DNA of 64,000 nt from Candidatus Omnitrophota bacterium (GCA_016782495.1 JADHYL010000001.1:34360-98359), one strand, 5' to 3'. Counted from the first letter of the stretch, positions 18,810 through 21,620 are shown. Numbers and translations are program-made. The notes: generated from the letters alone by a model not told the origin.

Positions 18810-19574
18810 TTAAGGTGTGAAAAGTTTCCTGCCGTTTTTGTTAAAAATCGAAAACCTGCCAAGCCTTAGCTTTTGGAGTACGAACTTTGCCGAGGACATC
18901 AATACGTTGAGGCCGTAAATTACGCTTCTTTTGAATCCTATGGACGAAGACTCGCTCGTATATTGCGATGGGGCGGTGATCTCGCCGATTCTGTAGCCGA
19001 AATATATTGCTTGAACGAGCATCTGGTTGTCAAAAACAAAATCATCGGAATTTTCTACTATCGGAAGGTTTAATAAAACCTCTTTCGAAAACGCTCTGTA
19101 ACCCGTATGATATTCCGAAAGCTTCTGGCCGAGTAAAATATTTTCTACAAGGGTTAAAAACCTGTTAAAAATATATTTATAGAGGGGCATCCCGCCCTTA
19201 AGCGCCATACCGCCTAAAATTCTGGAACCCAGCACTATATCGAACATACCAGAAGTTATAAGACCTGCCATGGCAGTTATTAATTTGGGAGGATACTGAT
19301 AATCGGGGTGAAGCATTACGATTACATCCGCACCTTTCTTAAGCGCCTCCCTGTAACAGGTTTTTTGGTTTGCGCCGTATCCCTTATTTCTTTCATGCAC
19401 GAAGATGTCAATTCCCATTTTTCTTGCGATTTCAACCGTCCGATCGCTTGAGTAATCATCTGTCAAAAGTATCTCATCAACAATATCCTTGGGGATTTCG
19501 TCATAAGTTTTTTTGAGCGTTTTTTCGGCGTTATAAGCCGGCATAACAACGACTATTTTCTTTTTCTCCAGCAT
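18810..19574 (-). CDS. GT2-family polyprenyl-phosphate glycosyltransferase (Dpm1/GtrB/ArnC-like).
   Basis: VVVMPAYNAEKTL...LLTDDYSSDRT...DVIVMLHPDYQYPP shows the GT-A fold DxD-type motifs typical of polyisoprenyl-phosphate sugar synthases. 254 aa. Confidence 0.8.
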   Translation of the reverse strand: MLEKKKIVVVMPAYNAEKTLKKTYDEIPKDIVDEILLTDDYSSDRTVEIARKMGIDIFVHERNKGYGANQKTCYREALKKGADVIVMLHPDYQYPPKLITAMAGLITSGMFDIVLGSRILGGMALKGGMPLYKYIFNRFLTLVENILLGQKLSEYHTGYRAFSKEVLLNLPIVENSDDFVFDNQMLVQAIYFGYRIGEITAPSQYTSESSSIGFKRSVIYGLNVLMSSAKFVLQKLRLGRFSIFNKNGRKLFTP

Positions 19575-19583
19575 ATTACTTCT

Positions 19584-21620
19584 CTATTCTTCTTTTATCC
19601 CGGAATTTTTTTTCATTTTTTCTAAACGGTTTGCAGCGAGCACCTTTATTTGTTCGAGCGTTTGCACGGGGACATCGATGGATTTCTGATAATATGCCTT
19701 GGCGCTCTTGGCATCCTTGTCCATCTCTTTTTTTATCCCGACGTAATAATAACATATTACTTTAAATTCCGGCTGCCACGACTCTGTCTTCCGAAGGAGA
19801 TCTTGCAGCGTTATTTCGCCAACGAGAAATTTTGAAATCTCATTAAACCATATCTGATCATTAAAGTCCTCCGAAACCCGCTGCCAGACTCCAACTGCTT
19901 TTTCGTTATCTCCTTTTCCGAAATATAAATCTCCCAATCTAAGTCCAGCAGCTGCATAAGCTGATCTTGCATGATGTGGCGGGGGTTCTTTTAAAATTTC
20001 GTTTAGCCGCACAATACCGGAATCAACATCCCCCTTAAGCAAATCAAGCGTAGCGACGGAAATCTTTATGCCAATGGAATCCGGGTTAAGGGCGAGGCCC
20101 TTTTTGTACTCGTTATACGCCAAGTCGTATTTTTCCTGCCGCTGATAAACGATAGCCAGGGCCGTATATGTCGGGATATACTGCGGGTCGTTTTTTAAAA
20201 TCTCTCTGTATTGTTTGATTGCCTCCTCGAGACGCTCGTTGTGTATGTGGTATAGCGCTATCATCCTTCTTGCCGAGGGGTTCTCATCGGGAGAAACCCG
20301 AAGTGCCTCCCTTGCCTCCTCGAAGGATTTTTCTTTGTCGCCAGCATTATAATAAGCGACCGAGAGATTAAGGTGCGCCCGGTAATTATCGGGGTATTTC
20401 TCCAGGACGCCTTTAGAAAACGCAATATCGTTTGACCAGGTGGTGTTTCTTTCCATTGTAAGATATGAAAAAACAAAAACGAGAAAAACCGAAAAACATG
20501 TTAATGAATACCTGAAGATACGCAACTTTTTAATTTTATCGAAGAACTTCACGATAAGCGCCGCGATTATGATAAAATAACCGACCGACGGCAGGTATAA
20601 AAATCTTTCGGCTATCAATATCTGGATTGGTATAATGTTTGCGGCTGGGGCAAGGGCTATAAAAAACCAAAAAACACAAAATGCTACGAGTTTTTTCTTC
20701 TTTGCCAGCTTTATAGCGGTTGCAATTAACAGAATAATTGCGATAATCGAAAGAAATACCGCCGGCTCTTTTATTGAATATGAGGCAGGAAACATGACGT
20801 AATCGGCGCACAAACCTACGGGGTAAACAAGCAATCTGATATAATAAACTATGCCACGCGCCATCGTAAGAAAGGTCGTATACGCATCCCCGGTCCAATA
20901 ATCGCATTGCGCGAGTTTACCTATAATATTAAAACGCAGAATTACGTATGACGCAAGAATCAGGAAAAAGGTAAAATACCGCAGCGCCCTTACGCTAATC
21001 TTTTCTTTCCTGCCGTAAAAAATATCGTACAGGATTATCAGAAACGGGAAGCTTGCGGCCATTTCTTTCGAAAAAAGCGAACATGAAAATAGCAAAAGCG
21101 ATGTAATGTAAAAAGGCAACCGCCCTCGCTTTATGTAACCCATATACGCGATGAACGCTGCAAGATAGAAAAACAAAAACAAAACGTCCGCCCTTCCGGA
21201 TATCCACGCCACGCATTCGGTCTGAATGGGATGGGTTAAAAAAAATAACGAGGCAAGCATACTTATAATTCTTTTCCCGGTAATAAATAAAACAAGATAA
21301 AAAACCAAAATAGCGTTTGCGATATGAAAAAAAAGATTCGTGAGGTGGTAGCCGAGCGGATTCAGTTTCCAGAAAAAATAGTCCACTGCGTATGACAATA
21401 TAAGAAGCGGCCTGTAATTTTCACCGGCCAAGGTACCCTTAGCCAACGCGTCTTTTGAGAAAAAATAGTGCGGCAAAAGGCGCAGGTCTTTTATGAAATC
21501 GTTCGAGATGACAAAGGCTACGTCATCCCATACAAAATCCCCGCCCAATGAATTACTGTAGACAATGATACCCGAGAAAATTATTAAAAAAAGTATTATA
21601 CTTCTCTCTACTGTGATCAA
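19584..21620 (-). CDS. GT-C family integral-membrane glycosyltransferase (PMT/ArnT/TMTC-like), 678 aa. Carries C-terminal TPR repeats. TTG start.
   Basis: N-terminal DGDFVWDD...ENYRPLLILSYAVDYFFWKLNPLGYHLTNLFFHIANAILVFYLV followed by about 11 transmembrane segments. The C-terminal third has multiple TPR-like 34-aa repeats (AYYNAGDKEKSFEEAREALRVSP..., ALYHIHNERLEEAIKQYREILKNDPQY...). Confidence 0.75.
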   Translation of the reverse strand: MITVERSIILFLIIFSGIIVYSNSLGGDFVWDDVAFVISNDFIKDLRLLPHYFFSKDALAKGTLAGENYRPLLILSYAVDYFFWKLNPLGYHLTNLFFHIANAILVFYLVLFITGKRIISMLASLFFLTHPIQTECVAWISGRADVLFLFFYLAAFIAYMGYIKRGRLPFYITSLLLFSCSLFSKEMAASFPFLIILYDIFYGRKEKISVRALRYFTFFLILASYVILRFNIIGKLAQCDYWTGDAYTTFLTMARGIVYYIRLLVYPVGLCADYVMFPASYSIKEPAVFLSIIAIILLIATAIKLAKKKKLVAFCVFWFFIALAPAANIIPIQILIAERFLYLPSVGYFIIIAALIVKFFDKIKKLRIFRYSLTCFSVFLVFVFSYLTMERNTTWSNDIAFSKGVLEKYPDNYRAHLNLSVAYYNAGDKEKSFEEAREALRVSPDENPSARRMIALYHIHNERLEEAIKQYREILKNDPQYIPTYTALAIVYQRQEKYDLAYNEYKKGLALNPDSIGIKISVATLDLLKGDVDSGIVRLNEILKEPPPHHARSAYAAAGLRLGDLYFGKGDNEKAVGVWQRVSEDFNDQIWFNEISKFLVGEITLQDLLRKTESWQPEFKVICYYYVGIKKEMDKDAKSAKAYYQKSIDVPVQTLEQIKVLAANRLEKMKKNSGIKEE

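Follow-up and report, generated by a model that had tools for sequence, protein, structure and literature searches.

A candidate TfpW-like, TMTC-type pilin glycosyltransferase and its GT2 partner in the pil cluster of a Candidatus Omnitrophota genome

Organization of the locus

The subject of this study is a pair of glycosyltransferase genes set within the type IV pilus cluster of a Candidatus Omnitrophota metagenome-assembled genome (MAG), in a 64-kb stretch (GCA_016782495.1, JADHYL010000001.1:34360-98359) that we call the window and whose full length supplies all coordinates given here. On the minus strand, which carries every feature located in the window below, the genes run in the order pilT, pilB, pilB, pilC, pilin, a 678-amino-acid (aa) protein that joins a membrane-embedded GT-C glycosyltransferase domain to tetratricopeptide repeats (GT-C/TPR), a 254-aa family 2 glycosyltransferase (GT2), and then pilMNOPQ. 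The GT-C/TPR open reading frame (ORF) occupies 19584-21620 and has a TTG start; the NCBI gene model is identical, and an NCBI entry for a "tetratricopeptide repeat protein" of Candidatus Omnitrophica bacterium matches the product at 100% identity. The GT2 ORF (18810-19574) starts 9 nt beyond the GT-C stop, and directly downstream of it lie the alignment and secretin genes pilM, pilN, pilO, pilP and pilQ (14407-18733, with pilM at 17714-18733 and pilQ at 14407-16059). An earlier reading of this DNA, made from the sequence alone, had placed both ORFs at exactly these coordinates, between the pilin gene and pilMNOPQ, and had proposed that the pair glycosylates the pilin; the gene order that we find agrees with it.

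The major prepilin gene (21699-22031) is directly upstream of the GT-C gene. Its 110-aa product matches the Pfam N_methyl model (7.9e-9), and pilin and pseudopilin models of NCBIfam as well. Cleavage at the methylation motif GFTLVE, after the glycine, would leave a mature protein of 105 aa. Serine and threonine make up 27% of the last 52 residues, which form the head domain, so that the sequence-only reading's description of a Ser/Thr-rich C-terminus holds.

The pilin gene appears to have transcription signals of its own. A sigma-70-like promoter, recognized by consensus match only, lies 5' of the gene at 22132-22160 (TTGACA, 17 nt, TATACT, with a TG extension; 11 of 12 matches). In the gap between the pilin and GT-C genes there is a predicted intrinsic terminator or attenuator, a hairpin followed by a U-tract at 21646-21679 (-20.3 kcal/mol, z = -4.8), which ends about 25 nt ahead of the GT-C start; a pilin terminator in this position had been noted before. 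In nine of ten orthologous loci checked, the strongest hairpin of the gap is likewise followed by a U-run, the sequences themselves being unrelated. Given a promoter and terminator at the pilin gene, we propose that the transferase genes are reached by read-through and expressed more weakly.

The GT-C/TPR protein

Residues 1-394 (20439-21620) are predicted to form a GT-C catalytic membrane domain of 11 transmembrane (TM) helices. The AlphaFold2 model of the whole protein, built on 43 homologs, has a mean predicted local distance difference test score (pLDDT) of 92.3 and a predicted TM-score of 0.91; in it the membrane half adopts the 11-helix GT-C fold, for which yeast Pmt4 is the best match among solved structures. 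As modeled, this polytopic fold is common to PMT, STT3/AglB, ArnT and the ALG enzymes (GT-C_A). Searches by sequence were less informative: a hidden Markov model profile of the TM domain found no PDB sequence even at E = 10, and a tblastn search of plasmids with the same domain returned one weak archaeal match that is uninformative.

The motifs DGDFVWDD, ENYRP and HLTN, picked out at the first inspection, are all present in the protein, and the conserved residues extend well beyond them. D32 and D33, encoded at 21522-21527, are placed in the first periplasmic loop, after TM1. Together with R70 and P71 they are kept in 90 to 91 of 91 family sequences (D32/D33 in 90 of 90 aligned members). The residues K185/E186, Y260, P267 and E338/R339/Y342 are kept in at least 89 of the 91, and Y69 in 73; the spacing Y260-x6-P267, in the periplasmic loop EL4, is invariant (91/91).

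To which glycosyltransferases is the protein related? The sequence-only reading had suggested a search with the Pfam models PMT_2 and DUF1736. For the window protein, TMTC_DUF1736 gives E = 0.011, at 16 bits against a cut-off of 27, and is thus below threshold; among the membrane domains of family members, TMTC_DUF1736 is matched in 16 of 31 (best E = 7.1e-7) and PMT_2 in 8 of 31. We also considered whether the protein groups with ArnT and the lipid A enzymes. Fold and motifs are of the TMTC/PMT type and are not specifically ArnT-like.

The C-terminal half, residues 395-678 (19587-20438), is a TPR domain of about eight helical hairpins, predicted to be periplasmic and proposed to be the acceptor-recognition module. 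Pfam TPR models cover residues ~400-585, and apart from these Pfam offers only the sub-threshold TMTC_DUF1736 match; OGT and SPINDLY are among the PDB sequences matched by this half. Which side of the membrane the TPR array faces is of some importance, as a cytoplasmic location would speak against the proposed function. A helix map read with the positive-inside rule gives 11 TM helices, and all of the short cytoplasmic loops are rich in Lys and Arg. With an odd number of helices and loops of this kind, the TPR array is predicted to share the periplasmic side with the catalytic DD loop.

Linkage of the GT-C gene to the pilin gene

Relatives were collected by scanning one genome per species; at least 557 were found, and the gene neighborhoods of the best 79 loci were analyzed. 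In a neighbor-joining tree of membrane domains, all of the pil-linked GT-Cs fall in one clade, of which we examined 11 loci (the window, L001, L002, L008, L009, L010, L011, L012, L090, L091 and L092). The GT-C gene directly follows a pilin gene in all 11, which bears out, for the GT-C gene, the co-occurrence with pilin genes that the first reading had asked about. The other side is variable. The gene after the GT-C gene is GT2 in 6 of the 11, and elsewhere it is a second pilin gene (L012, L090), a second GT-C gene (L008) or minor-pilin-like ORFs (L091). A fixed pilin neighbor combined with a varying downstream gene is the pattern expected from selection on the linkage of pilin to GT-C.

The sister clade, represented by L004, L013 and L016, has the same GT2 ortholog upstream of its GT-C genes, and pil genes are absent nearby in the three loci with enough flanking sequence (L013 is too short to judge). 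Outside the pil clade, two distant GT-Cs, in L073 (Nitrospinota) and L040, adjoin prepilin genes, among some 65 loci.

Several of these neighborhoods have features that deserve mention in their own right. The second pilin paralogs, directly after the GT-C gene and in the place of GT2, are divergent (L012:8016-8348 and L090:6015-6356). In L002 (10037-11500, minus strand), and also in L003, GT2 is missing, and immediately next to the GT-C gene, on the other strand, comes a gene for a 487-aa multi-TM protein. This protein has the sequence LPGDDALRH just past its first TM helix and no Pfam matches; it may be an unclassified GT-C-like enzyme. In the Nitrospinota MAG (L073:936-3761), a Ser/Thr/Asn-rich prepilin gene is directly upstream of the gene for a 752-aa GT-C/TPR protein (~30% identity), just after recA. 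In L040 (3-11701), from Omnitrophota, a probable GT2 fragment, two radical-SAM enzymes and an NAD-dependent sugar epimerase are encoded upstream of the GT-C/TPR gene, and a GspH-type prepilin gene lies directly downstream, followed by at least three more prepilin-like ORFs. L040 may be a second, independent cluster combining glycosylation and pilin genes.

The GT2 donor synthase

The GT2 protein matches Pfam Glycos_transf_2 at 1.5e-22. It has no TM helix, and a long C-terminal helix is found at residues 214-235. The best NCBIfam matches are the Dol-P-hexose transferase model (65.6 bits against a cut-off of 375) and PpgS (65.2 against 370), with AglJ also below its cut-off; the PgfS model matches at 2.6e-10. 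As the protein falls below the cut-off of every named NCBIfam equivalog, it belongs to a distinct subfamily. In a phmmer search of PDB sequences, the Pyrococcus DPMS (5mlz) is the best match (1.4e-11), with ArnC next, and when the AlphaFold2 model (pLDDT 85.7) is compared with solved structures by Foldseek, the top 14 matches are ArnC, GtrB and DPMS, at E values of 5e-13 to 4e-11 and TM-scores of 0.63-0.70. By sequence and by predicted fold, then, the nearest enzymes are DPMS, ArnC and GtrB, which agrees with the initial view that the protein resembles a polyprenyl-phosphate sugar synthase.

The motif used for comparison among catalytic sites of polyprenyl-phosphate GT2 enzymes is DxDxQxPP. 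In the window protein the corresponding signature is H89-P-D91-Y-Q93-Y-P-P, in which H89, D91, Q93, P95 and P96 are invariant in 29 orthologs. The DxD signature ascribed to the protein by the sequence-only reading thus needs amendment: the first Asp is replaced by His, leaving no literal DxD, and what stands is a variant of the longer motif.

Is the GT2 dedicated to the pilus? Its orthologs, all of ~253 aa, form more than 120 clusters at 72-81% identity, while GT-C orthologs reach at most 69%. GT2 orthologs adjoin GT-C genes in at least four clades of the GT-C/TPR family. In the genome of one pil-linked locus (L008), a GT2 ortholog stands alone elsewhere (L087); in L088 the ortholog is found among PMT_2, YfhO and Glyco_transf_22 GT-C genes; and in L089 it directly follows the gene for the apolipoprotein N-acyltransferase Lnt, beside a PMT_2 gene. 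These varied placements and the high conservation suggest a polyprenyl-phosphate sugar synthase of general use, supplying several GT-Cs and not specific to the pilus. The two genes had been proposed as a pilin glycosylation pair, but they do not form a dedicated pilus unit, as GT2 is missing from 5 of the 11 pil-linked loci. We note separately that the conserved GT2 ortholog is located directly after, or near, Lnt and SecA in two places (L089:3567-5756 and L005:761-7041).

Paralogs and extent of the GT-C/TPR family

A second GT-C/TPR gene in the window (35175-36965) encodes a 596-aa paralog that is 38% identical to the 678-aa protein, belongs to another clade of the family and carries KETAAT at the equivalent of K185-E186. 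It is wedged between aroA and mreB-mreC-mreD-pbp2-rodA; its ATG overlaps the aroA stop by 4 nt (ATGA), the translational coupling that had been pointed out earlier. Its closest relatives, L026 and L031, do not share the aroA/mreB setting. In another genome (L004:7001-12457), one GT2 ortholog is followed by a tight group of three GT-C/TPR genes, the first of which has two short ORFs without annotation (88 and 106 aa) after it. The L004 layout suggests that GT-C paralogs multiplied while sharing one donor synthase.

The family is in fact very large. With the membrane domain as query, 87,526 cluster representatives (50% identity) are found at E <= 1e-3, and 58,859 at E <= 1e-10. The GT-C/TPR family is mostly unstudied, and the stronger statement of the sequence-only reading, that it is essentially uncharacterized in bacteria, overlooks TfpW of Pseudomonas aeruginosa, which has the same architecture and gene position.

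Comparison with known systems

TfpW, a 646-aa protein of P. aeruginosa group IV strains (Pa5196/PA7), is a pilin D-arabinofuranosyltransferase that O-glycosylates the pilin. From a cytoplasmic N-terminus the chain crosses the membrane in 11 TM helices, with an essential DDX motif in the first periplasmic loop, and ends in a large TPR domain in the periplasm; the gene immediately upstream is pilA. Judged by this description of TfpW, the window GT-C is of similar size and shares with it, by prediction, the cytoplasmic N-terminus, the 11 TM helices, the loop-1 DD and the periplasmic TPR domain, as well as the position of the gene right after the pilin gene. There are differences as well. Loop 4 of TfpW has the pattern Y-x6-P-F-x7-P, whereas in the window protein Y260-x6-P267 is followed by Val in place of Phe, and the next Pro comes 11 residues later. 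As donor, TfpW uses polyprenyl-phosphate D-arabinofuranose (Araf), made by a pathway of phosphoribosyl pyrophosphate (PRPP), DprE1 and DprE2, and it polymerizes the sugar; at the Omnitrophota locus, in contrast, the putative donor partner is a Dpm1/GtrB-type GT2. Genes of the Araf pathway (DprE1/DprE2, PRPP transferase) are not found within the 64-kb window, nor is a tfpX-like gene identified at the Omnitrophota locus.

The second close comparison is with the eukaryotic protein O-mannosyltransferases TMTC1-4 (CAZy GT105), which are likened to the window GT-C by motifs and architecture: both have 11 TM helices followed by TPRs on the non-cytoplasmic side. Eisenhaber and colleagues define seven TMTC motifs, M1 DD, M2 (SHKS)YRP, M3 RxD, M4 KE(T/Q)xxT, M5 DW, M6 PxxP and M7 ERxxY. 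The window protein is collinear with M1, M2, M4 and M7, with residue numbers that differ little from those of TMTC3. The SHKS of M2 is absent, M3, M5 and M6 are partly reproduced, and EL4 is about 35 residues shorter. R143 is kept in 88 of 91 family sequences, with Asp or Asn at position 145; EL4 has D273-Y274 in place of DW, and P325 and P331 are spaced PxxxxxP. The TMTC enzymes are expected to draw on a polyprenyl-phosphate hexose supplied by a Dpm1-like GT2, as the window GT-C would. The acceptors differ: a cadherin domain for TMTC, and for the Omnitrophota protein, as proposed here, the pilin. A literature search for TMTC together with pilin found nothing relevant.

Other systems share parts of the scheme. 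In actinobacteria, Ppm2 (Lnt) is found beside Ppm1, a soluble Dpm1-like GT2 making the polyprenyl-phosphate mannose used by the GT-C protein O-mannosyltransferase Pmt, and the GT2 orthologs near Lnt in L089 and L005 recall this arrangement. The actinobacterial Pmt, however, is a GT39 enzyme that lacks a TPR domain, acts on Sec-translocated proteins generally and is not linked to pilin. Protein O-glycosylation by a GT2 and a GT-C together is established in streptococci, where Ser/Thr-rich regions are modified: in the GtrB-PgtC2 and Pgf systems a GT2 makes an undecaprenyl-phosphate sugar, which a GT-C moves to Ser/Thr of extracytoplasmic segments; these systems differ in being Gram-positive, in a GT-C without TPR and in having disordered tails, not pilins, as acceptors. 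TfpO/PilO and PglL are polytopic pilin O-oligosaccharyltransferases that face the periplasm, and tfpO directly follows pilA. Unlike the window GT-C, TfpO and PglL belong to the Wzy_C/O-antigen-ligase family and transfer a preassembled oligosaccharide en bloc from undecaprenyl diphosphate, without a GT2 that makes a monophosphate-linked sugar. The cyanobacterial pilin glycosyltransferase Ogt was considered as a relative and ruled out, as it is a GT41 enzyme of the OGT type and not a GT-C.

A model for pilin glycosylation, and its alternatives

That the GT-C and GT2 proteins constitute a lipid-carrier glycosylation pair is well supported. We also consider it somewhat more probable than the combined alternatives that the GT-C is a TfpW-like, TMTC-type pilin O-glycosyltransferase that uses a polyprenyl-phosphate hexose made by the GT2, and gene order together with the TfpW precedent tips the balance modestly toward the major pilin as acceptor. 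A possible path is as follows. At the cytoplasmic face of the membrane, the GT2, as a soluble or peripheral enzyme, would move one sugar from a nucleotide sugar to polyprenyl phosphate; judging from similarity to known enzymes, the sugar would probably be a hexose such as mannose. A flippase, encoded outside the window, would then carry the lipid-linked sugar across the membrane, where the 11-TM GT-C would bind it at the periplasmic D32/D33, the fold, motifs and topology of the enzyme being predicted with high confidence. Finally, the periplasmic TPR domain would hold the head of the pilin while the latter is still anchored in the inner membrane, and the GT-C would glycosylate Ser/Thr residues before the pilus is assembled. 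Candidate sites on the mature pilin are the (D/S/G)-T-x-T loop at residues 57-61 and T68, the Thr of an LTP sequence. In such a scheme the GT2 would be a donor synthase common to several GT-C paralogs, and pilus specificity would reside in the GT-C/TPR protein.

A number of points weigh against this scheme. On the side of the donor, the neighboring Dpm1/GtrB-like GT2, which is what points to a polyprenyl-phosphate-linked sugar for the GT-C, has no TM helices, and the soluble enzyme GpgS ranks close behind the lipid-phosphate enzymes in the Foldseek comparison of the predicted model. A flippase gene is absent from the 64-kb window, where no small multi-TM ORF is left unassigned that might be of GtrA type, and no GtrA-type gene is found beside the pair in orthologous loci. 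On the side of the transferase, the window's own protein reaches the DUF1736 model only at the sub-threshold E value given above. As to the acceptor, glycosylation of the pilin is here something that we infer from gene order and the TfpW precedent. The 11 loci come from Omnitrophota-type MAGs, some of them binned under other names, and form a single monophyletic clade; shared descent therefore explains part of the constant adjacency, and the two pilin-adjacent GT-Cs among ~65 loci outside the clade are about what chance would give, for which reason we do not use them as strong evidence. The sister clade has the same GT2 and similar GT-Cs, yet lacks pil genes nearby. Moreover, with a family so large and contexts so diverse, acceptor specificity is not transferable from one member to another.

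A first alternative is that the GT-C/TPR protein belongs, as one paralog among others, to a system that O-glycosylates envelope proteins in general, comparable to TMTC1-4 of animals. Its target would be a periplasmic or outer-membrane protein other than the major pilin (for instance PilQ, PilP, a minor pilin or something unrelated), and its place in the pil cluster would reflect co-regulation or history. The 64-kb window has at least two paralogs, each in its own context, and other genomes have tandem copies; the great size of the family, the sharing of a GT2 that is not specific to the pilus, and a sister clade without nearby pil genes all fit such a system. A general target would not, however, lead one to expect that the pilin gene is the invariant neighbor (11/11) while the pilM side varies, or that second pilin paralogs are inserted beside the GT-C gene in L012 and L090, and the TfpW precedent favors pilin as the acceptor. 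We regard a general envelope system as unlikely, though it is the most serious of the alternatives.

It is less likely still that the GT-C modifies a non-protein acceptor, be it lipid A or lipopolysaccharide (LPS), as ArnT does, peptidoglycan or a surface polysaccharide, with the TPR domain as a scaffold. The modeled fold, shared as it is with ArnT, would allow this. Against it are the TMTC_DUF1736 matches and TMTC-type motifs, and a C-terminal TPR array that is a hallmark of the protein-directed TMTC, OGT and TfpW; LPS or arn genes are absent next to the pair, whereas adjacency to pilin is conserved. That the protein is mainly a pilus assembly factor acting through its periplasmic TPRs as PilF, PilW and Tgl do, with transferase activity secondary or absent, is very improbable: NCBIfam models for Tgl (3.7e-12) and PilW (2.2e-10) do match the TPR region, and a separate TPR pilotin gene is not seen in the cluster, but the scores (46 bits against 225, and 40 against 154) fall far short of the cut-offs and express a likeness common to TPRs, the protein is held in the inner membrane by its 11 TM helices and is, for want of a lipobox, not a lipoprotein, and the catalytic GT-C residues are all invariant, for which reasons a pilotin as the main function was rejected.

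Implications

The pilin glycosyltransferase proposed here is not a new kind of system. It would be a TfpW-type pilin glycosyltransferase with TMTC-type motifs and a donor made by a GT2, found in an uncultured phylum. In Pseudomonas, pilin glycosylation alters the stability and function of the pilus and blocks pilus-specific phages. The Omnitrophota are tiny and often attached to hosts, and type IV pili are thought to be central to their lives; a conserved pilin-modifying enzyme, if our interpretation is true, would be part of their surface biology. In the 105-residue pilin, one enzyme of this very large, TMTC-like bacterial family has a candidate substrate that is small and defined. The family shares catalytic motifs with the human TMTC O-mannosyltransferases. 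The GT2, as a shared housekeeping donor synthase, matters for the prediction of glycosylation systems from gene order.

How might the wider family be understood? One speculation, which we put forward tentatively and judge rather doubtful as a whole, is that the large bacterial TMTC-type GT-C/TPR family carries out periplasmic, domain-specific protein O-glycosylation, with paralogs specialized by their TPR arrays. The pil clade would then be a branch dedicated to pilin and served by a single Ppm1-like synthase of polyprenyl-phosphate mannose, the family would be the prokaryotic counterpart, possibly the ancestor, of TMTC O-mannosylation in animals, and TfpW would be one characterized offshoot.

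Other features of the pil locus

Upstream of the pilin gene, and adjoining it, is pilC (22173-23393), preceded by two tandem full-length pilB ATPase genes (25142-26881 and 23398-25131). Between the pilB pair and pilT (27343-28413) there is a stand-alone ORF of 151 aa (26884-27339) for an MshEN domain, the GspE N-terminal domain. The layout of tandem pilB genes with a stand-alone MshEN ORF (23398-27339) is the same in L001, L002 and L012. Directly upstream of pilT, in the window (28415-29845) and likewise in L002, is a gene for a membrane HAMP-GAF-GGDEF protein, whose position beside pilT suggests control of the pilus cluster by cyclic di-GMP.

At the other end of the cluster (9182-14540), pilQ is followed by the gene for RNase G, an insertion that is also kept in L001 and L002, and then by genes for a 142-aa prepilin-like protein and for proteins of 715 and 390 aa. 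The 715-aa protein has a prepilin-type N-terminus, KGMTLIELM, and these three genes beyond RNase G are probably a minor-pilin or tip module.

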